From Dictyostelium discoideum (Eukaryota): a DNA stretch of 64,000 bases. Within the stretch, counting starts at the first letter, position 1; every line of letters starts with the position of its first letter. Both the position numbers and the translations under genes were made by a program. The stretch lies in assembly GCA_000004695.1 (NCBI GenBank), contig CM000151.3, forward strand, positions 6,528,001 to 6,592,000, read 5' to 3'. Below are positions 5,752 to 48,657 of the stretch, piece after piece. Under the pieces are notes generated by a model, which did not search any database, was not told where the DNA came from, and saw nothing but the letters and a program-made list of their open reading frames with translations.

Positions 5752-6156
5752 TACATTGACATTTTCTTTTGAAATTGATTTTTTTGAAACATCTAATTTT
5801 GAATTTGAATTGTTTTTATTATTTCCTTTTAAAATTTTATTTTGATTTTCGTTTTTAATAATATTGTTTAGAATACCATTTTTGGAAATTAAATTGTTAT
5901 TATTATTAATATTATTATTATTATTATTCTTATTATTATTGTTTAAATTTAATAATTTATTATTATTTGATTTTATTAATTTTTCTTTATTCAAATTATT
6001 GTTTACATTATTGTTCAATTGAATGATTAAGGAATTAGCAATATTGTTACCATTTTTGAGACTTTTATAAGTATTTAAGGTTTTGGATGGTCTATAGGTG
6101 TTGCTATTATTTTCTGTCGATTCTTTAAAGCTCTTTTTAAAATCAGAACTATTCAT
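4428..6156 (-). CDS. Mitochondrial substrate carrier family protein (about 527 aa) with an Asn-rich N-terminal extension; two exons 6156..5755 and 5609..4428
   Basis: Exon 1 is M..SKKSISKENVN followed by a GTAAGT donor at 5754-5753. An AG acceptor at 5611-5610 is followed by YLVSGSIAGAISRSATAGFERLTIIQQVQG.., which continues in frame into the listed ORF 4428..5519. Three mitochondrial-carrier repeats are present, with the Px[DE]xx[KR] signatures PLDVVRIRLSLQG and PLDVLRRRMMIQG. Confidence 0.7.
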
Positions 6157-6212
6157 TTATATTAAAGGAGGGGAAGAGAAAAAAAAAAAAAAAAAAAAAA
6201 ATATTTTTCCTT

Positions 6213-6254
<42 letters not shown>

Positions 6255-6271
6255 CTCTTTCAAGTTGTTGT

Positions 6272-6304
<33 letters not shown>

Positions 6305-7404
6305 CAATGAAATTAATCTTGGGTTTATAATTATTTGTTGTGTTGATATTATTGAATCTATATAAAAAAAATGATTTTTGTATTAATATATTTTTTTTTT
6401 TTTTTATTAAAAGATAATTTTTTTTTTTTATTTTTTTTTTATTTTTTTTTTTTTTAAAATAAAAAAAAAAAAAAAAAAAAAAAAAATTAAAAATAAATAA
6501 AAAATTTAAAACAATAATTTAAATATATTGTTTTAGATATTTTCCTTTTTTCTTTTTTTTTTATTATTTTTTATTTTTTTTTTTTTATTTTTTTTTTACC
6601 TTATTTTCATAATAAAATTTTTTTATTTGAACAACAAGTAATCTTAATTTTTTTTTTTTTTTTTATTTATTTATTTAATAATAGATTATGTTATGGTGGA
6701 TATTTTATTTTAACATACATAAATATTTTTAAAATTATGATAATTATATTTTTTTTTGAAAAATACTATTAAAATAAAAAAAATAATAAAAATATATATA
6801 TATTTATTTTTATATTTATGACTTGTCTGGTTATATATATGAAATTAAAAATTAAATGTTTTTTTTTTTTTTTTTTTTAATTATAATTTTTCCTGTTTAT
6901 AAACAAAAAAAATTCTTTTATGGATAAAAATTTTAAAAAAGAAAAAATAGCTAATACTGGTGAATAGAAAGTGAATATATTGAAACTGTTTATGTTTGGG
7001 AGGTCTTTTTATTTTCAAAGTGTTTACTATCAAAATATCAATTGAACTTTGAAAAGTATAATTGAAGGGTGTCCAAAAAAGGTCAAAGTTGCAAAACTAC
7101 AAAAATTTAAAAAAAAAAGCCCCACTATTCGACACTTTAATTATTTTTTGGTTATTTTTTTTTTATTTTTTTTTTAATTTAAAATTTATTTTTTATTTTT
7201 TTTTAATTTATTTATTTTTTTATTTTTTAATTTTTTTTAATTTAAACTTGATTAGGTAACATCCCTGTTGTTTTTATTATCTGAAAAAAATAATAATAAA
7301 AACAAAGATTTTTATAATTAGATTTTAAATAATTTCATTGATTTTTACAATAATAATAATAATAAATATTAAAATAATAATAAAAATAAAAATAATAATT
7401 ATAA

Positions 7405-7445
<41 letters not shown>

Positions 7446-7811
7446 TAATAAAATGATTAAATAAAAAAATTTAGATTTTGAAATATAAAATGGGTTTTTA
7501 TTTTTTATTTTTTTTTTTTTTTTTTTTTGATTTTTTGATTTTTATTTTTTTATTTTTTATTTTTTTTTTTTGTTGGTTGGGAAATTTGTTGTAAATTTTG
7601 GAGCTCACAAAGATAAAACTATTTGTTTGGTACCTATTTTTTTTTATTTTTTTATTTTTTATCTAAATTCCAAAAATATCATACCAAGAGAGAATTTTTA
7701 TTCAAATTTATATAACATACCCCCTCTCCAGATAGAATCATAAGTCACAATAGCACTCTATTGTGAGTTGTTATAAATAAAAAAAAAAAAAAAAATAATA
7801 ATAATAAAGAA

Positions 7812-7858
<47 letters not shown>

Positions 7859-8020
7859 GTTTTATGTGCAATAAATCAAATTCATAATTACCACCAATAA
7901 AAAATCCACAAAAAACTCACAATTTCACCACAATTACATATATAGATAAAATCAATTACATATATATATATATTTTTTTTTTTTTTTATTTTCAACAAAA
8001 ACAATACTCCCACATAAAGT

Positions 8021-8046
8021 AACCCCACCCCCACTCACACACACAC
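8021..8046. promoter_or_regulatory. C-rich/CA-rich element (AACCCCACCCCCACTCACACACACAC) about 190 bp upstream of the ATG at 8235; a candidate CAE/G-box-type developmental promoter element
   Basis: This is a very GC-skewed 26-mer in otherwise >85% AT intergenic DNA. Its reverse complement is GTGTGTGTGAGTGGGGGTGGGGTT, a G-box-like sequence. Confidence 0.3.
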
Positions 8047-8234
8047 TAAATTACTTTTTTTCTCATAATAACACAGATAATTTATTTTTCAACATTAAAA
8101 TATCTCCTGCTCATTCATAATAATATTCAAATAATTAAAAAAATAAAATATATAAAAATAAAAATAAAAAAATAAAAAATAAAAAAATAAAAATAGTAAA
8201 ATTAACACACAAGATATTTTTAAAAAATCCAAGA

Positions 8235-9014
8235 ATGAATCAATCAAAACTACCAATAACAAAAATTTCAGAAACTGTTTTTAACCGCTTAAACCAATCA
8301 AATGATGTTATTAACAACACCAATAATAACACCACCAACAATAACAACAACAATAACAACAATAATAATAACACCAATAATAAAAATAATATAAATTATT
8401 TATTAAAACCAATTAATGAAATTAATGAAAATAAAATTTTAAATGATCCATCAAATGAAAATGGATTAAAACAATTATTTTACGAAATTAATAAATATTA
8501 TAATAATTTTGGGAGTAAATTAATATTTTTCTCATTAATTGGAAGTGAATCATTTAATTTGAATATTGAATCAAGTGATCAAGATTTCTTTGGAGTTTAT
8601 GAATGTGATATTGATCAAATTTTGTCATTTGAAAGTTACTATTACAATAGAATTCCAATTCAAGTTTTTCAAAATAACAACTCAAATAATTCATTACAAA
8701 AAGATAGAGATCGTGATAATATAATCAACCCAAATGAAACCATTATTCATTTAAAACCAGATATTACAATTCACGAAATTAGACATTTTTCAAAACTTTT
8801 ATTATTAGGAAATCCAAAATTAATTGAACCCTTATTCATTGAAAACTTTTGTTCATCAAGTCAATCATGGTTAGATTTAATTAAAAATAGAAAACTTAAT
8901 TTTTATACAATAACTTGTTTAACTCATTATTATTCAACTGTTAAAGTTTTATATTTTGATATTAAATCAATTTTTGAAAATGATAAAAAACAAAATGAAA
9001 AACAACAAAATGAA

Positions 9015-9059
<45 letters not shown>

Positions 9060-10520
9060 AATGAAAAATCATTAAATGATAGAAAAAGTATTTTTAAAAA
9101 ATCATATCATATAATTAGATTATTAATTGAAATGAATGATATTATTAATTATAAAGATATTAGAATTTATTTACCAAATCAATCAGAAGAAAGAAAATTA
9201 TTAATGAAAATTAGAGAAGGTGAAGAAATTGATATTCAATCTTGTTTTGAATTAGTGCAATCTAAATATTTAGAATTTGAATCAAAATTTAATGAATTAA
9301 AAAAAAATTCAACAAATGATTCTTTAATTAAATTAAATTCAGCTAGAGCATTACACGTTTTAAATGATTGGGTGGTTGATATTAGAAGAAATTCAATTGA
9401 AAATTCAAATAATTTAAATTCATTTAAAAAATATAAATTTGAAAATGAAAATCATCATGATGAATCAAATAATAGTTTTAAAATTGCAATGGATTTAATG
9501 AATAAAAATAATATTAAAGGTACTTTAATTTATTTTGGTCCTTCAGGTAGTCATTTACATGGTTTACAAGATGATGATCATAATGATGAAAATAGTAATG
9601 ATAATGAAAAGATTGATTGGATTGGTATTTATGCAGCGCCAACTGATGATATTGTTTCATTATTCCCACCTGCATTAAAACATGATTCAAGTGGTTTCAT
9701 AATGCAATCAAATGAACATATTGGTATAAATCTTAATCCAGCACCTGATAGACCAAATAATCAAAATAAAAAGGATTCATTCAGTAAAGGTATCATTTTA
9801 TATGAATTAAAATATGCATTGCAATTAATTGTAAATTGTTCCTATAGAGTTTTAGAATGTGTTTTCATGTCTTCAAATCAAGTACTCAATAATCATCCAT
9901 TCAAAAATAAATTTTATATTACAGATGCATGGAAAGATTTCATTAATCAAGTTTTAATCAATGATAATAATAATAATAAAACTTTTTCAAAATTATCAAA
10001 TTCAAATTTAATTCAACAATATTGGGGACTTGCAAAAGGAATTAGTATGAAGAATTCAACAATTTTTAAAATGGTTAAATCAAATTTGTTAAGAAAAAAA
10101 GATGATGCTATTACTATTGCTGAAGAAGATTTAGTTACTGATGATAGTATTTCAAAGAATTTATTCTTTTTAAATTATTTATTAATACAATGTAATACTA
10201 TATTAAATGGTATTGTTTTTAATGAAAATAATACAATTATCAATTCTCCAAATAATGAAATTTTATTAAAAGAAAAAGAAATACCATCTATATTCATTGA
10301 TAAACAATCAAAAGATTATCAATTTTTAATGTCATTAAAACATAACAAGCTAAACAAACTATCAATCATTCAATCATTAATAATTGATTCTGATTCAATT
10401 TTAGAAGAAATTAGAATTAAATTAGATACTTTAAAGAAAATACAAAGAATTGATCTTGTAGAATTTGAAACTATAAAATTATTAAATTCATTTTATAATA
10501 AAGTCAGAAAATCATTATAA
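8235..10520 (+). CDS. Protein (761 aa) with two tandem predicted-nucleotidyltransferase (Pol-beta fold, RlaP/PF10127-like) motifs and poly-Q/poly-N tracts
   Basis: It is a single ORF from ATG to TAA. The first motif, LIGSESFNLNIESSDQDFFGVYECDIDQI, fits the hG[GS]x9-13[DE]h[DE]h pattern with GVY..P. The second, LIYFGPSGSHLHGLQDDDHNDE..IDWIGIYAAPTDDIVSLFPP, fits the same pattern with a low-complexity insert. Confidence 0.6.
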
Positions 10521-28292: not shown

Positions 28293-29348
28293 ATGATTTA
28301 TAATAATAAAATAATAATAATAATAATAATAATAAATATAATTTTATTAAATAATGTAAATGGTCAAATAGTAAATGCACAATCACAATATAAAAATATT
28401 TATCCATTTCCAAATTTATTGGGGCCAACTGATCCAGGGTTTAGTCATTTTCCATTATTTGAAGATTTAATTTTACATATTCGTTGTTATTATAATAGGG
28501 ATGGTGAAATTGGTGATATAATGCTATTTGATTCTGGGCTACCAATGTTTTCAACATCATTTGGAAACGTCATACAAATGTTAATTGCCAATAATACAAT
28601 GAGCAAGTTGGGTTTATCAACAGCCTGTTTCTTTGATAGATACGGATACGGTTGGTCAGAGATTAGTCCAAAGCCTGTGTTGGCACAGGATTTCGCAAGA
28701 AAGTTAAGAGGTTCCATCCAAATGATACCAGAGTTGGCCAATAGAAAATTCTTTTATTGCGGTTGGAGTTATGGAGGATTGAATGCTCAAACCTATGCAA
28801 TGTTATATCCAAACGATGTTAAAGGTATTCTAACAATCGATGGTACCGATATTGGTGTTATAAATGATCAAAAATGGTTAATGATTCCACGTTTTCTTGA
28901 TATGATCAACTATTTCAAAAGATTACCAAATGAAGAGTTTAAACAATTTTGTAGAAATGGTTCTCTAAGTATTGACTATGGTTGGATTTCCAATGCTATA
29001 AGTTTACCACAAAGTTGTATAGATAAATCACAAGCAGTATACTATAACCCAAATCAAAATTATCTAAATACAATATATCAAGAATTGTCGAATATGATTC
29101 CAAATGCAAATGCTTTGAATAAATTGTACAAAAAAGCCCCAAATCCTTCAAAGCCATTAGGAAACTTACCAATGGTAGTTATGTCCTCTGATCCAGATGA
29201 TGAACCATCTTGGTTTGAAAGACAAATTAAATTATCTGAATTATCTTCAAACTCTATTCAATTAAATTGTCAAAATCATTTCGTACCATTTTATCAACCA
29301 AAATTAGTTATAAATGCAATTGAAGTTTTAAGTGCTAAATCAAAATAA
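28293..29348 (+). CDS. Secreted alpha/beta-hydrolase-fold protein (lipase/esterase-like), 351 aa, single exon
   Basis: The signal peptide is Ile-rich: MIYNNKIIIIIIIINIILLNNVNG. A GxSxG nucleophile elbow is present in FFYCGWSYGGLNAQ, and a C-terminal His candidate lies in NCQNHFVPFY. Confidence 0.6.
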   Translation: MIYNNKIIIIIIIINIILLNNVNGQIVNAQSQYKNIYPFPNLLGPTDPGFSHFPLFEDLILHIRCYYNRDGEIGDIMLFDSGLPMFSTSFGNVIQMLIANNTMSKLGLSTACFFDRYGYGWSEISPKPVLAQDFARKLRGSIQMIPELANRKFFYCGWSYGGLNAQTYAMLYPNDVKGILTIDGTDIGVINDQKWLMIPRFLDMINYFKRLPNEEFKQFCRNGSLSIDYGWISNAISLPQSCIDKSQAVYYNPNQNYLNTIYQELSNMIPNANALNKLYKKAPNPSKPLGNLPMVVMSSDPDDEPSWFERQIKLSELSSNSIQLNCQNHFVPFYQPKLVINAIEVLSAKSK

Positions 29349-29532
29349 ATTTAATTTTTTCCCAACTTTTTTAAAATTATTATAATAATAAAATAATAAC
29401 TATAAAAATAATAATAATAATAATTATAATAATAATAAAAAAAATAATAATAATAATAACAATAATAATAATAATAATAATAATAATTAACTTTTTTTTT
29501 TTTTTATTTCGAATTTTAAAAAAAAAAAAAAG

Positions 29533-29587
<55 letters not shown>

Positions 29588-29759
29588 AAAATATTGTTTA
29601 TCTATTCAATTGTTTAAAACTACTTTCTATTATTTATTAATATAAAATAATATTTCAAAATAAAAAATAAAAAAATAATAATGAAAATTTTTAATAAAAT
29701 ATAAAAAAAAAAAAAAATTATAAAATCTAAATAATTTCCATTTTTAAATATTTTATTAA

Positions 29760-29990
29760 AAAAAGTATCAAACATTGCTCATTTGAGATCGAATTAATAA
29801 TTGATCTCTTTCCAAATCTATTTAAACTTTTGCTCTGAGCCAAATTCTAATTGTTATTCAGACCAAATTATTTTCTTTTAAACTGTGATCTGATGAATTT
29901 TCTTAAAAATAATTTAAAAAAAGATTTTTCTTTTTTTTTTTTTTACATATCATTTAATTCGATCTTAAATGAGAAATATTTAATACTTTT
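29760..29990. mobile_element. MITE-like or foldback element of about 230 bp bounded by ~38-bp imperfect terminal inverted repeats
   Basis: The left arm at 29761-29798 is AAAGTATCAAACATTGCTCATTTGAGATCGAATTAA. The right arm at 29951-29990 is TTAATTCGATCTTAAATGAGAAATATTTAATACTTTT. About 34 of 38 bases are reverse-complementary. An internal GAGATC..GATCTC palindrome is also present. It lies in intergenic DNA between the hydrolase and Rab-like genes and has no coding capacity. Confidence 0.45.
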
Positions 29991-30112
29991 TTTAATAAAT
30001 ATTTTGTCTTTGATTTTTTAATTTTTTTTAAAAAACCTATATTTAATTTCAAATTTTTTTTTTTTTCCCACACTTTTTTCATTTTTCGCCTATCTAAATT
30101 AATTATTTAAAA

Positions 30113-30661
30113 ATGAAAACAGCAAAAACAGACCATTATTTATTCAAAATTCTTTTAGTTGGTGATGGTAATGTTGGAAAGAGTTCAATGATTGAAAGAT
30201 TTATTGATGATACATGGAATGATACATATATAGTAACTAGAGATCAAACTTTTAAAGAGAAATATATTTATTTAAATGAAAATACAATTAAACTTCAAAT
30301 TTGGGATATGGAAAGGTTAAAAATGGTATACCGTAGTGCACATGGTATTATAATTGTTTTCGATTTCACTAATCAAGATTCATTTAATAACATTAGAAGA
30401 TGGTTATCTGAAATTGAAAGATATGCACATGAAGAGGTAAATTTATTATTGGTTGGAAATAAAATTGATTTATATGATCAAAGAGTAATATCAACTGACC
30501 AAGTCAACTTATTAATAGAACAGTTAAATGGCATTTTTAATTTTAATTTGAATTTTATTGAAGTCAGTGCAAAAAAAAATATAAACCTTGAACAATCTTT
30601 CATCACAATTACAAATGATATGTTAAATCGTTATTTGGAGGGTTCTAAAAATACAACCCAA

Positions 30662-30714
<53 letters not shown>

Positions 30715-30769
30715 TAATAATAGTAATAATAAACCAAGAAAGAAATCATCATTTTGTATAAATCAATGA
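30113..30769 (+). CDS. Rab1-like small GTPase paralog (218 aa) with a deleted or degenerate switch II and a C-terminal CaaX box (CINQ); a likely pseudo-GTPase
   Basis: It carries G1 (LLVGDGNVGKS), G4 (LVGNKIDL) and G5 (SAK) motifs and a Rab-family signature YLFKILLVGD..FIDDTW. Where [22 protein letters not shown] is expected, it reads IWDMERLKMVYRSAHG, so about 7 aa including the DTAGQ motif are missing. It ends poly-N..KPRKKSSFCINQ*. Confidence 0.65.
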
Positions 30770-43350: not shown

Positions 43351-43432
43351 GACATCGTAGCAAAGTGGTCTAATGCGTCTGACTAGAAATCAGATCCCTT
43401 CGGGGGCGCAGGTTCGAACCCTGCCGATGTCG
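43351..43432 (+). tRNA. tRNA-Ser (anticodon AGA) with a long variable arm
   Basis: The acceptor stem GACATCG pairs with CGATGTC, followed by discriminator G. The anticodon stem-loop is TCTGA-CTAGAAA-TCAGA, giving anticodon AGA. The variable arm is the 13-nt stem-loop CCCTTCGGGGGCG. The T-arm is GCAGG-TTCGAAC-CCTGC, a B-box GGTTCGAACC. There is no intron. Confidence 0.85.
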
Positions 43433-43699: not shown

Positions 43700-44953
43700 A
43701 TGAATTCCTACGCAGACGCGGCTAAAATGGCCAACCCCTCCACCCATATGGACGAGGCATCAGAGAACTTCATTAAGGAATTCTCCACAAAAACAGCAGA
43801 GATAAAGGAGACCTACCCCAAATTATCAATAGGCCTCAAAGACATCTCCAAATACTGCGAGACCATATTGAACATGACTGCGCTCTCAACCTACGAGAAA
43901 AACAACGGATTCTACCCAATTACACTCGAATTCCCCAAAATGGATCTCATGGGGTTAGAAGAAATGAGAAAAACACTCTCAAACTACGATATCCCAATCG
44001 ACAAGATATACATAGGCAAAGGAACTAGAAAAATGATCCACCTGATGATTAAAAACGAACAATCTCTCCTAAATATCATTAGAGATAGAAGCAAATTGGG
44101 AACCTTCATCACCTCCAGTAGAGACTACCACGTCCTCACAGGAAGAGTAAGAATTCCAAGAGAAAAGGCAGGAATAGTGGACGCCCTCATCAAAACTGCC
44201 TTTGCAGAAGAAATGCCCTATGCAATATACCATACTATATACTCCACCGACCACCTCCTAGTATTCGGTCTAATAGAATGCGAAATAGGCGATCAAATGA
44301 AATCTGGCCAACACAATACAGAAATCGCCAACTTTACCATCAGAACGGCCACCAAAACCTACTCCTCACAAAAGAAAAATAAGAAAGTAGAGTCAAACAA
44401 CACGGAAGAACCATTAGAAGATGAGATGACAGATGATCCTCCCAACATCCAAAACAGGATAGCAATCAAATCCTCTCAACCAAAACCACAACAACAAACA
44501 AACAACCCAGCAAACAATAAGTCTGATAAACAATCAACCCAAGAGAAAAAAGCCCAATCAAAAAAGTCCTCTCAACCTCTTCCCCCCAAAAACCAAGCAG
44601 AATCTCAATCTGTCAAACCCACCACAACCACTACCACAACATCCAACGCCATCCAAAAAGACAATGCCAACAAAACGAGCACTAACATCCATTCATCCTC
44701 GGAAAACAGAGAGAAGACACCAAACATCCCTCCATCACATAAACGCAAGAACGAGGAAATCCACTCAAACAACGAGGTCACCCAACTCTCACCAACAATA
44801 AACAGAAGCAACCCTTACATCCCATCCACCCCTAAGACACCTGTCAAAAATGAAAGGAAAGGAATCATTGAGAGCTTCATAGAGAGTATCTACCCTTCAC
44901 CATCCAAACCGCAGCTATACGACTCCCAAGAGGAGATCGATATCATCTCATAA
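43700..44953 (+). CDS. Retrotransposon ORF1 protein (417 aa) with a basic Ser/Thr/Pro/Gln-rich C-terminal half
   Basis: This is the first ORF of the TRE3-type element and ends one nt into ORF2's ATG. Its N-terminal half is non-repetitive (MNSYADAAKMANPSTHMDEASENFIKEF..). Confidence 0.7.
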   Translation: MNSYADAAKMANPSTHMDEASENFIKEFSTKTAEIKETYPKLSIGLKDISKYCETILNMTALSTYEKNNGFYPITLEFPKMDLMGLEEMRKTLSNYDIPIDKIYIGKGTRKMIHLMIKNEQSLLNIIRDRSKLGTFITSSRDYHVLTGRVRIPREKAGIVDALIKTAFAEEMPYAIYHTIYSTDHLLVFGLIECEIGDQMKSGQHNTEIANFTIRTATKTYSSQKKNKKVESNNTEEPLEDEMTDDPPNIQNRIAIKSSQPKPQQQTNNPANNKSDKQSTQEKKAQSKKSSQPLPPKNQAESQSVKPTTTTTTTSNAIQKDNANKTSTNIHSSSENREKTPNIPPSHKRKNEEIHSNNEVTQLSPTINRSNPYIPSTPKTPVKNERKGIIESFIESIYPSPSKPQLYDSQEEIDIIS

Positions 44954-47900
44954 TGGTAGTAATCAAAATCAACCAATGGAATGTCAGAGGTTGGGGCACT
45001 GACACCTCCTTCAAAAACAAAACAGACTTTATCAAATCCCAATCCCCCCCAAACTCATTGGCAATAACCATAGTCAATGAACTCAACGCCGACGCAACAC
45101 AAGCACACCAGCTATTTCCTGGCTCCATCATTAGCGCAACCAACAGAGGCAACGGAATAGGAATACTAAACCACAACAACCAAAACATAAAACTCTCACC
45201 AATATTCATAATAGAAGGTAGACTAATAATATCAGACATTCTAATAAAAGATACCACAACGAGAATCTTGGCCATATACGCCCCGGCCCAACCTGATAAA
45301 AGAAAAACACTAGCTTCAACACTAAACAAACACTTCAACAACCAATACCACAACCTAACGTCTAACCCTAAAAAAAACATCGACATCATAGCAGGCGACT
45401 TCAATTGTTTAGACTTCAATGACAATCACACATCAAATGATGACCAAGGCAACTTGACAACACAATCCCCAGATGAGATGGCCACAGTAATCGAAGCCAT
45501 CAGAATTTCAAATAACCTAATGGATATGGACCAACTAAATAAAAGACCCACCTTCTCAAGAACGATACACAACACAAACAATAACCTCACAAGAATCTTG
45601 GAAAGGAGACTAGACAGAATATACCTTAACAATAGCATAATCAACTACAGCCAATTATACTTAAGGAACCTAATCCCCCCAAAAATTAATGACATACCTC
45701 TATCAGATCACAACTTCCTATCAACCACCTTCACTCTACCCAACATACAGATGAACAAGCGCAGATGGAGATTAAAAAAATCCTCAATCCTCTCAAGCAT
45801 AATGCTTAAGAAAATAGACTTCCTACTTAACGATTATTCAAGGGAGCTGTCATCCAACCATAACTCTATTTCCTTCTCTCAACTCAACAGCTTACTAAAC
45901 AAAATAAAACAACTATACACAGAATTTCAAAAACAAAATGACTACAACAATAAGGCAAACATCAAAAATCTAATCTCCCTACTAGAGACAGAATTTAAAG
46001 ACCAAGCCTTCGCAACCCTTTCAGCAATAAATGAATCTAAAAAAAGAGAAGAACAACTTAAACAAGAATTGAACAACTATTGCGAAGAAACCTCACTCAA
46101 GTACATCTCCGCGAGAATCAAGAAAAGACACAATGATTTCACCATCAACGCAGTAAAAGATGCACAAGGTAGAACAATCAACAAACAGGAATTGATCGAA
46201 GAAGAATACGTAAAATATTACTCAAATCTTTATGACTACAAAGAAGATGACCCACCATCTCATTATGAAATGTTGGAAAATTGGACAGTGACCAGGGACT
46301 CAACATGGGACAACCTTGAAAATGAATTCACATCACAAGAGATCCTAGAAGTAATAAAACAATTGAACCCACACAAATCTCCAGGCCCAGATGGAATTCC
46401 AAACTTATTCTACATAACACACAAAGAAAAACTAGCTCCAATACTGGCCTCAGCATTCAACGACACTCTAAGAAATCCTCATCTAATTAGCAAAAATTAC
46501 AAAGAAGGCCTCATTATCACGATACCTAAAAAGGGAGACCCCGAACTAATCAAAAACAGAAGACCAATTACACTGGCTAACTGTATATATAAAATCCACT
46601 CAAAACTAATAAACAATAGAATAATCCCAATACTAACGAAAGTGATCAACCACAATCAAAAAGGTTTCGTACCAGGCAGATTCATTATAGATAATATCAT
46701 ATCAATGAACGAATTAATCAACTATTGTAATGATAAAAGAATTAACGGAATAATTACACTATATGATTTCGAAAAAGCTTTTGACTCGATCTCACACGGT
46801 TCAATACTCAGATCACTACAACACATCAACATTCCAACCAATATAATCAACCTGATAATGAATCTACTCACCAAATCTGAAGCAAGAATTGAAATTAATG
46901 GTAGAACTACTATACCCTTTGAGATCAAAAGAGGAGTTAAACAAGGAGATCCACTATCACCCACCCTGTTCGTCCTTGTAATAGAGGCTTTAGCTAGAAA
47001 AATTTTACAAGATGACCGAATTACTGGCCTTCCTCTAAACAACAGCAACCACAGAGAGAAATTCCAAAGCTTTGCAGACGACTCGGCTTCAATGGTCCCA
47101 GACTCTCAACAACTTGAATTAGTACTACAACACTTCAATTCATTTTGCAAAGCCACTTCCTCAAAACTAAACATCGACAAATCTTCATCAATTCTTATAG
47201 GCAACCCAGACAATACCAACCAAAGAATTCCAATATCTACAAATCCAGAAAGATACTTGGGATACTTCTTCACAGGCAAAGGGATAACAAGAAAAATGCC
47301 AGAAATATTAAACACAATAAGATCATCCTTAGTACTATGGAAAACCACTGACTCAACAATCAAAACCAAAACCAACATCCTCAAAGCATTCGCACTCTCT
47401 AAATTAACCTACTATTCATATGTAGAGAACTTTAAGGAAGAGGAATTAAACCAAATCAATAAATTAGTCGAATGGTTTTTATCGGCACCAAACAACAAAA
47501 ATGCTAGTGGATTTCAAGTTATTAATTTAATGAGAGCCAAAAGAGCAAGATACCCACTAAAAGTAGGAGGCTGGAACATTTGGAATATAGAATTGAGACA
47601 ACTGGCGCAGAAACTTTGGATTATAAACCAGTTCATCCTAGCACTAGAAACCAAACAAACAAACTCATCTCATCACAAAAGCTGGGAATATCAGATCCAA
47701 AAAAACAAATTCACATCCAGATACCTAAAAGAAAACTTAGACGAATGGAACAAAATAAGAATAAAAAAAGCAATCTTCAACAATAATCTCACATCCATAA
47801 AAAACGAAAATGGACAACCACTTTCACTGGCAGAATGGTATACCACAATTCAAGACCAAAATCCAACCATCCCTAAAACGGAATTCCAATCATCTCTAAA

Positions 47901-48657
47901 CTTAAGAGGCTACAGCTATAATCAACTCTTCAACAATATACTGAAGATAAAAGACCCTAAAACAAGAGACACAATGTTTAGATTCCATGCCAGATGCCTT
48001 CCAATAAACTACCTTCACAACAAACAATGCCCACTCTGCAAAGAAGATATGAGCAAAGACCCATACGGTCACCTGTTCTTCTCATGCAAGAAAACAAAAC
48101 AATTCATAAAAATAAATAAACTCAAAAATTTCATCTTTATTACCACAGGCAAAGGTAAAAACTGGCACCATACAAGAATTAGGCAAAATAACAATTTCAT
48201 TAATAGAATAACTCCAAAATTATCACCGACAGCCAAAAAAGATCAAGAAGTGAATGCAGATTACGCCAACCACAGATTCCACAAAGAATACTTTGAATGG
48301 AACTATAAAGCAATAGACTATGATCTAACCAGATCATTCGCATATAGAAACCTAATGGCCCTTATCCTCCACAACATTTGGATTTGGATTTGCAATCAAA
48401 TATACAGTGAAGATCCTTTAACAGATGAATCACTATCATACAGCTCCCTTCTAAAGAAATGGCACAAATTGGCCACTCTAGAATACATCAAAAAAGCAAA
48501 AGATCTGAAAAACTTATCAGCAAAAGACCATAATAACTTCAAAGATCCTAAGATCCTTCTCACTTCAACGATCAAGCTAAGAAAAACAACAGCTAATTAC
48601 TATTGTATTCCAGAATCATCTCTCCCAAATATTATATCTTTTGATCAATTCATATGA
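44953..48657 (+). CDS. Retrotransposon ORF2 polyprotein (1234 aa): apurinic-endonuclease-like domain, reverse transcriptase and C-terminal zinc-knuckle-like region
   Basis: The N-terminus MVVIKINQWNVRGWG.. is an EEP/APE endonuclease start. The RT blocks are ..FYITHKEKLAPILASAFN.., GFVPGRFIIDNI, ITLYDFEKAFDSISHGSI and QSFADDSASMV (the F/YxDD box). The whole ORF is intact with no internal stops. Confidence 0.8.
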   Translation: MVVIKINQWNVRGWGTDTSFKNKTDFIKSQSPPNSLAITIVNELNADATQAHQLFPGSIISATNRGNGIGILNHNNQNIKLSPIFIIEGRLIISDILIKDTTTRILAIYAPAQPDKRKTLASTLNKHFNNQYHNLTSNPKKNIDIIAGDFNCLDFNDNHTSNDDQGNLTTQSPDEMATVIEAIRISNNLMDMDQLNKRPTFSRTIHNTNNNLTRILERRLDRIYLNNSIINYSQLYLRNLIPPKINDIPLSDHNFLSTTFTLPNIQMNKRRWRLKKSSILSSIMLKKIDFLLNDYSRELSSNHNSISFSQLNSLLNKIKQLYTEFQKQNDYNNKANIKNLISLLETEFKDQAFATLSAINESKKREEQLKQELNNYCEETSLKYISARIKKRHNDFTINAVKDAQGRTINKQELIEEEYVKYYSNLYDYKEDDPPSHYEMLENWTVTRDSTWDNLENEFTSQEILEVIKQLNPHKSPGPDGIPNLFYITHKEKLAPILASAFNDTLRNPHLISKNYKEGLIITIPKKGDPELIKNRRPITLANCIYKIHSKLINNRIIPILTKVINHNQKGFVPGRFIIDNIISMNELINYCNDKRINGIITLYDFEKAFDSISHGSILRSLQHINIPTNIINLIMNLLTKSEARIEINGRTTIPFEIKRGVKQGDPLSPTLFVLVIEALARKILQDDRITGLPLNNSNHREKFQSFADDSASMVPDSQQLELVLQHFNSFCKATSSKLNIDKSSSILIGNPDNTNQRIPISTNPERYLGYFFTGKGITRKMPEILNTIRSSLVLWKTTDSTIKTKTNILKAFALSKLTYYSYVENFKEEELNQINKLVEWFLSAPNNKNASGFQVINLMRAKRARYPLKVGGWNIWNIELRQLAQKLWIINQFILALETKQTNSSHHKSWEYQIQKNKFTSRYLKENLDEWNKIRIKKAIFNNNLTSIKNENGQPLSLAEWYTTIQDQNPTIPKTEFQSSLNLRGYSYNQLFNNILKIKDPKTRDTMFRFHARCLPINYLHNKQCPLCKEDMSKDPYGHLFFSCKKTKQFIKINKLKNFIFITTGKGKNWHHTRIRQNNNFINRITPKLSPTAKKDQEVNADYANHRFHKEYFEWNYKAIDYDLTRSFAYRNLMALILHNIWIWICNQIYSEDPLTDESLSYSSLLKKWHKLATLEYIKKAKDLKNLSAKDHNNFKDPKILLTSTIKLRKTTANYYCIPESSLPNIISFDQFI

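Follow-up and report, generated by a model that had tools for sequence, protein, structure and literature searches.

A probable MITE-like insertion with decaying terminal inverted repeats upstream of a Ras-family GTPase gene in Dictyostelium discoideum

The genome of Dictyostelium discoideum is compact and very AT-rich, and DNA transposons form a small and sparsely described part of it. The thug elements of this species were reportedly defined by Glockner et al. in 2001. Apart from these, the literature that we examined describes only TDD-4/TDD-5 and, in other dictyostelids, Sola2 elements. TDD-4 and TDD-5 (Ginger2) are ~3.8 kb long, with terminal inverted repeats (TIRs) of 260–297 bp and 5-bp duplications (PMC2836005), and the Sola2 elements have 12–21-bp TIRs and 4-bp duplications (PMC3627910). 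A duplication of 9 bp characterizes elements of the MuDR superfamily (PMC3627910). The element thug-S is regarded as a DNA transposon or repetitive element with several genomic occurrences and is a source of miRNAs (PMC4894637, PMC6161686); DrnB-dependent miRNAs of D. discoideum arise both from intergenic hairpins and from thug-S (PMC6161686, PMC4894637). A keyword search of the literature for reports of MITEs or MuDR elements in Dictyostelium returned nothing specific.

We analyzed an inverted repeat that lies on chromosome 2 of D. discoideum AX4, in the 764-bp intergenic spacer from a hydrolase gene to a Ras-family GTPase open reading frame (ORF). The spacer is part of a 64-kb stretch of DNA, hereafter the window, whose positions are used below. 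A preliminary description of the window had proposed a MITE-like element at this site, with TIRs of ~38 bp that are complementary at 34 of 38 positions, ~150 bp of AT-rich non-coding DNA between them and a second short palindrome (GAGATC..GATCTC); a structured ncRNA gene had been named as the alternative. We consider it probable that positions 29755–29996 are what remains of one old insertion, in which a short TIR element of the MITE type, devoid of coding capacity, entered the site and has since been decaying. The features of the locus are given below, where L004 and L005 are the orthologous loci of two other D. discoideum isolates.

28293..29348, + strand: DDB_G0276297 (XP_643207.1), alpha/beta-hydrolase fold (weak match); the ORF is identical to the AX4 protein
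29745..29754: left copy of TAAATATTTT, candidate target-site duplication, 10/10 identical to the right copy
29755..29797: left TIR (ATTAAAAAAAGTATCAAACATTGCTCATTTGAGATCGAATTAA), 43 nt; in a six-arm alignment of AX4, L004 and L005 it has apparently kept the ancestral sequence at every position
29798..29953: core, or hairpin loop, 156 nt, AT-rich, non-coding, ~84–91% identical to L004/L005
29932–29945: T14 run within the core
29954..29996: right TIR, 43 nt; four of its positions have changed from G/C to A/T since the reconstructed ancestral arm
29996..30005: right copy of TAAATATTTT; its first base, an ambiguous T, may also be assigned to the end of the right TIR
30113..30769, + strand: Ras-family small GTPase ORF (PF00071 Ras, E = 1.7e-39)

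The element begins 407 bp past the stop codon of DDB_G0276297, and the ATG of the GTPase ORF lies 117 bp downstream of its end; it is presumed to be placed within the promoter region of the GTPase gene. An inverted-repeat search returned arms at 29752–29797 and 29954–29999, which are 46 nt long, 91% (42/46) complementary and 156 nt apart. Direct reading gave the arms proper as 29755–29797 and 29954–29996, 43 nt each and complementary at 39/43 positions. The arms first described were thus confirmed and are slightly longer than reported, and on realignment their identity stayed at 39/43 and did not drop to background. The core, at 156 nt, is close to the length first given, and it contains no ORF of note: the element has only stop-free stretches of up to 56 codons with a low-complexity, AT-rich translation, and its short ORFs were absent from a collection of 15 billion proteins. 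Its termini are ATTAAAAAAAGTATCAAAC, and its length is 241 or 242 bp, depending on the assignment of the T at 29996. The inner palindrome exists as well (GAGATC at 29785–29790 and GATCTC at 29803–29808, at the left edge of the core); however, alignment showed that the orthologous copies do not share it, and it is probably incidental.

Long "inverted repeats" formed by runs of A and runs of T abound in the window, and one reading of the locus is an artefact of AT-rich DNA, due to chance or low complexity, or else a palindrome that regulates the GTPase promoter in cis. Because the window is crowded with such poly-A versus poly-T pseudo-palindromes, a composition-aware log-odds scan was applied to all inverted repeats with a span of <= 700 nt in the whole window. 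The inverted repeat of the element scored 49 bits and ranked fourth. Among the top 20 it was the sole one with complex arms, containing 10 G/C per arm versus 0–3 in the other 19, all of which were poly-A versus poly-T. An arm 24-mer occurred at two sites only in the 64-kb window (expected 0.00 from 100 shuffles), and an arm 21-mer at the same two sites only (shuffle expectation 0.00–0.01). Folding of 29745–30005 as RNA gave -57.7 kcal/mol (z = -7.1) for the + strand and -69.8 kcal/mol (z = -9.1) for the - strand, with 0/200 shuffles as good for either strand, and folding of the same segment as DNA gave z = -5.5. The k-mer shuffles, the z-scores of the RNA and DNA folds that the preliminary description had proposed, and the log-odds scan all bear out its statement that such arms are very unlikely by chance. 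A chance origin of the inverted repeat is largely refuted by the shuffle statistics, none of the shuffles matching the arm pairing or the fold, and we regard an artefact or a promoter palindrome as highly improbable.

The preliminary description had also suggested a search for further copies flanked by target-site duplications of 2–10 bp. At the ends of the element itself, a direct repeat identical at 10/10 positions was found. The duplication is 9 bp long (AAATATTTT) if the T at 29996 is counted in the right TIR and 10 bp long otherwise. Its chance frequency was estimated from random site pairs, 150–400 nt apart, in the AT-rich parts of the window: such pairs were flanked by a direct repeat of 10 bp or more in 0.2% of cases at exact positions and in 1.7% with a slack of +-4 nt. 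TAAATATTTT is AT-only and nearly palindromic, and it matches at 6/9 positions when read as an extension of the inverted repeat versus 10/10 when read as a direct repeat. At the position of the right copy, L004 and L005 have kept TAAATATTT.

Arms and duplication together allow a comparison with the described systems. TDD-4/TDD-5 and the Sola2 elements are alike in being TIR-bearing cut-and-paste elements documented in dictyostelids, but neither fits the 43-bp TIRs and the 9–10-bp duplication found here. The direct repeat falls within the 8–11-bp range of the duplications made by Mutator-type (MULE) elements. Mutator-type MITEs are also similar in being small and non-coding, in having TIRs and a flanking duplication, in AT-rich insertion near genes and in presence or absence between close relatives. 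On the other hand, no documented match exists for a perfect TIR of 43 bp that ends in an A-rich terminus, and the element is likened to Mutator-type MITEs by the length of its duplication and not by its termini. A single character, the duplication length, thus suggests that the superfamily may be Mutator. With thug-S and thug-T the element shares the organism and the idea of a transposon-derived hairpin, a comparison made here by description and not by sequence; unlike the element, thug-S is described with an intron and hence as a larger gene-bearing unit.

To compare the site between genomes, six further assemblies were reached through the protein cluster of the hydrolase (GCA_054859145.1, GCA_054859205.1, GCA_054859235.1, GCA_054859325.1, GCA_054859355.1 and GCA_054859385.1), of which GCA_054859355.1 corresponds to L005. 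The orthologous loci, L001–L006, comprise 13–16 kb each.

L004, D. discoideum: element present at the orthologous site, 7480–7722
L005, D. discoideum: element present at the orthologous site, ~10278–10520
L002 and L006, D. cf. discoideum: element absent
L001 and L003, D. citrinum: element absent

The copies of L004 and L005 are ~82% identical overall to the element of AX4. In the four loci without the element, neither the arms nor the core had a significant match at the orthologous site. The spacer from the hydrolase to the GTPase gene measures 764–863 bp with the element versus 422–599 bp without it. In the final 700 nt of the hydrolase coding sequence (CDS), AX4, L004/L005, L002 and L006 are mutually 96–97% identical, whereas D. 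citrinum is ~92% identical to all others, indicating that D. citrinum is the outgroup. Furthermore, an upstream indel (CAATTGTTTAAAACTACTTTCTATT versus CAA------AACTACTTTCTCTATT, alignment columns ~460–470) groups AX4 with L004/L005. Considering the distribution of the element, the outgroup given by the CDS and the common indel, a single gain on the AX4/L004/L005 branch is the most parsimonious history. Identity of the hydrolase CDS to AX4 was 96.9% for L004 and L005, both labeled D. discoideum, and 97.3% and 96.4% for the two D. cf. discoideum loci. Species labels do not track divergence at this CDS, and presence or absence of the element separates the lineages better. A candidate arm remnant in D. 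citrinum (AATTTGATCTTTAATTA vs AATTCGATCTTAAATGA) was rejected, as ~1 such chance match is expected by a rough estimate (242 versus ~300 nt). In L005, a hydrolase gene model of 3.8 kb (6001–9795) was considered as an insertion and likewise rejected, the DNA being colinear with L004 at 96.7% identity over 1.6 kb; the model is an annotation artefact with a long AT-rich "intron", and its translation differs from the recorded product.

The same distribution bears on the promoter reading. The ATG 117 bp downstream of the element is in its favor, but the sister lineages retain the GTPase gene and lack the element, where a promoter element would be expected to be found, and the stem is not conserved.

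The homology of AX4 with L002/L006 reaches ~29747, the left edge of the repeat, and free alignments to these two loci break up into chance fragments to the right of that position. When the element and one copy of the repeat are deleted, AX4, L004 and L005 become colinear with L002 and L006 across CCATTTTTAAA...TTTGAT. The best single deletion relative to L006 is 246–252 bp long and spans ~29753–30009, which fits the element. Relative to L002 it is 283–297 bp long, with the same left end and a right end at 30029–30049; it scores 50 versus 22 for deletion of the exact element, and the right junction is therefore not clean in this comparison. The intergenic region of D. citrinum is too divergent for an empty site to be defined at base level.

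As the main rival explanation, an insertion at this site could also have come about by other means than transposition. Some 250 bp of palindromic filler may have been captured or synthesised during double-strand-break repair, through fold-back priming or template switching, and the 10-bp repeat may derive from staggered-end fill-in or microhomology; neither a family nor a transposase would then be involved. The fuzzy right junction against L002 is compatible with such an event. The empty sites of L002 and L006, however, hold no counterpart of either arm or of the core, so that the insert did not arise by inverted duplication of the local DNA, and a clean 10/10 duplication with a colinear empty site is the classic signature of integration by a transposase. 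We therefore consider an orphan insertion of this kind conceivable but rather doubtful, and prefer the insertion of a MITE-type element, in which TIRs at the very ends, a flanking duplication and an empty orthologous site go together with 241–242 bp of non-coding DNA, a length below the ~800-bp limit of MITEs.

To trace the history of the arms, the left arms of AX4, L004 and L005 were aligned with the reverse complements of their right arms. At the four positions where the two AX4 arms differ, the right arm of L004/L005 agrees with the left arm of AX4, and at two positions where the right arm of L004/L005 differs from the left arm of AX4, the right arm of AX4 sides with the left. By parsimony, this pattern of agreement indicates that the ancestral arms were identical at 43/43 positions, as the arms of a TIR element should be soon after insertion. 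An in-situ fold-back copy would likewise yield arms that are identical over 43 nt, a degree of identity that many MITE TIRs do not reach. Since the ancestor, the right arm of AX4 has acquired four substitutions, all G/C to A/T, and the left arm of L004/L005 a 10-nt deletion (in the ATTTGAGA.. region) and about three substitutions. Identity between AX4 and L004/L005 is 84–91% in the element, depending on the alignment used, and 92–95% in adjacent intergenic DNA. The element thus shows no more conservation than its flanks, and its decay looks neutral. Its somewhat higher divergence might come from constrained flanks, from mutation promoted by the palindrome or from gene conversion by other copies, the numbers being too small for a choice. 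Within AX4 the arms have diverged by ~9%, which is of the same order as the AX4–L004 divergence of this DNA; the matching levels fit an insertion shortly before the split of the AX4 and L004 lineages, followed by neutral drift.

This decay also bears on the proposal of a functional hairpin-RNA or miRNA-like gene, the stem of which would be diced by DrnB/RbdB into ~21-nt regulatory small RNAs, as in the case of the thug-S miRNAs. For either strand, a highly stable stem is predicted. Over the 261 nt folded, the energy amounts to -0.22 (+) and -0.27 (-) kcal/mol/nt, only just past the threshold of -0.2 (PMC6161686), and such a gene would be compatible with a transposon origin. In this respect the element resembles the intergenic miRNA hairpins of D. 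discoideum (mir-1176, mir-1177 and mir-1178 to mir-1185), which are similar in location and in energy per nucleotide; it differs from them in its very long loop, its unconserved stem and a locus outside the published lists. At 156 nt, the loop by far exceeds the complete hairpin loci of Liao et al. (~110–150 nt). There are no compensatory changes in the terminal stem: the RNAalifold covariation term is +0.9, only the outer stem is retained, and the mismatches are uncompensated. With the loss of 10 nt from one arm, the fold of L004 weakens to -39.5 kcal/mol (z = -3.3, against -7.1 for the AX4 + strand). The arm strings were absent from the supplement of PMC6161686, which holds the miRNA tables, and a full-text literature search for the arm sequences found none. 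Rfam returned nothing at or near threshold for the element; a search of the window at the gathering threshold and of 29600–30150 at E <= 10 gave a tRNA at 43351 and two chance-level matches. The uncompensated decay of the stem, together with the arm deletion in two isolates, speaks against the structured ncRNA gene that had been offered as an alternative, and we regard a functional hairpin gene as very unlikely.

MITEs are defined by their occurrence in many copies. We searched the window with the arm 24-mer and 21-mer (<=3 mismatches), the loci with a 15-mer, and both by dust-filtered blastn of the element; blastn without the low-complexity filter was dominated by A/T-run matches. Beyond the element and its orthologues, no further copies were found in the 64-kb window and the six orthologous loci (13–16 kb each), which is what an orphan insertion would predict. 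No transposase ORF was found in the 64-kb window either, the only mobile-element ORFs being those of a reverse-transcriptase retroelement. Exact arm and core patterns gave no hits in metagenome, GTDB-genome and viral collections, as expected of collections that contain no dictyostelid genomes. A scan for bacterial promoters and terminators showed no enrichment and is irrelevant for a eukaryote. The MITE-like transposon first proposed is therefore upheld in its TIRs, target-site duplication and empty site, but not in the presence of a second copy within the window or the six loci.

If the element did arrive by transposition, its history may be pictured as follows. A transposase supplied in trans would have recognized the 43-bp TIRs. 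A staggered cut of 9–10 bp would have been made in intergenic DNA upstream of the Ras-family GTPase gene, at ...CCATTTT/TAAATATTTT/GTCTTTGA... (insertion site CCATTTTTAAATATTTTGTCTTTGA), and gap repair would have duplicated TAAATATTTT to either side of the element. The insertion would have taken place in the common ancestor of AX4 and the two divergent D. discoideum isolates, L004 and L005, once the lineages of D. cf. discoideum and D. citrinum analyzed here had branched off. Since then, both arms would have drifted with no upkeep by selection. If either strand is transcribed, the RNA may form a stem of ~46–52 bp and thereby a possible substrate of a Dicer-like enzyme, whose cutting would be a by-product rather than a conserved function. 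A more far-reaching version, which we consider quite unlikely, is that the element is the first member to be recognized of an uncatalogued Mutator-like MITE family with a 9–10-bp duplication, whose activity in the D. discoideum species complex was recent enough for cryptic lineages to differ in it, and whose copies are substrates of Dicer (DrnB) and also alter nearby promoters, here that of the Ras-family GTPase gene.

A decaying MITE-like insertion is an ordinary sort of event, although such elements are poorly catalogued in D. discoideum. If the reading is correct, a TIR element with a 9–10-bp duplication would be a sign that another transposase, probably of the Mutator type, was active in the recent history of the D. 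discoideum species complex, and the element could serve as a presence/absence marker of AX4-like lineages versus D. cf. discoideum. It would also illustrate the speed at which a perfect palindrome of 43 bp decays in this genome, with ~9% divergence between the arms and all AX4 changes from G/C to A/T. The practical consequence is modest: a single insertion, neutral in appearance, that ends 117 bp ahead of the ATG of a GTPase gene.

Several other features were observed in the same spacer. An (AAT)n microsatellite lies at ~29410–29487, and downstream of it a poly(A) tract of ~78 nt with few G (29513–29591); the lengths of both vary strongly across the seven aligned genomes. Between the element and the GTPase gene, L004/L005 carry an extra 17–18 nt (TTTCCTAAGGGCTAAAA) that AX4 does not have.

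~30044/30045 (window); ~7776–7793 (L004): insert point of TTTCCTAAGGGCTAAAA

Close by, at 30054–30074 of the window and ~40 nt upstream of the GTPase ATG, a T13 run is followed by CCCACAC, which is probably a core promoter element. The motif is kept in L004/L005 as CCCACAT and is recognisable in D. citrinum (CCCTACA / CCACTACA); in L002/L006 it is not clearly present. The CCCACAC stretch resembles, without matching, the DUSE motif ([A/T]CCCA[C/T]AA) of Dictyostelium ncRNA genes.

Elsewhere in the window, a tRNA-Ser(AGA) gene was found at 43351–43432 (+), with a non-LTR retroelement ~270 bp downstream on the same strand. ORF1 of the retroelement (43700–44953) encodes 417 aa without a Pfam match, and ORF2 (44953–48657) encodes 1234 aa with a reverse transcriptase domain (PF00078, E = 1e-33). 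TRE3-type retroelements insert downstream of tRNA genes, and the layout presumably matches that of the tRNA-gene-targeted retroelements of D. discoideum (TRE3 type). The GC content of the segment 43351–48657 is 35–42%, versus 13–25% in its surroundings.
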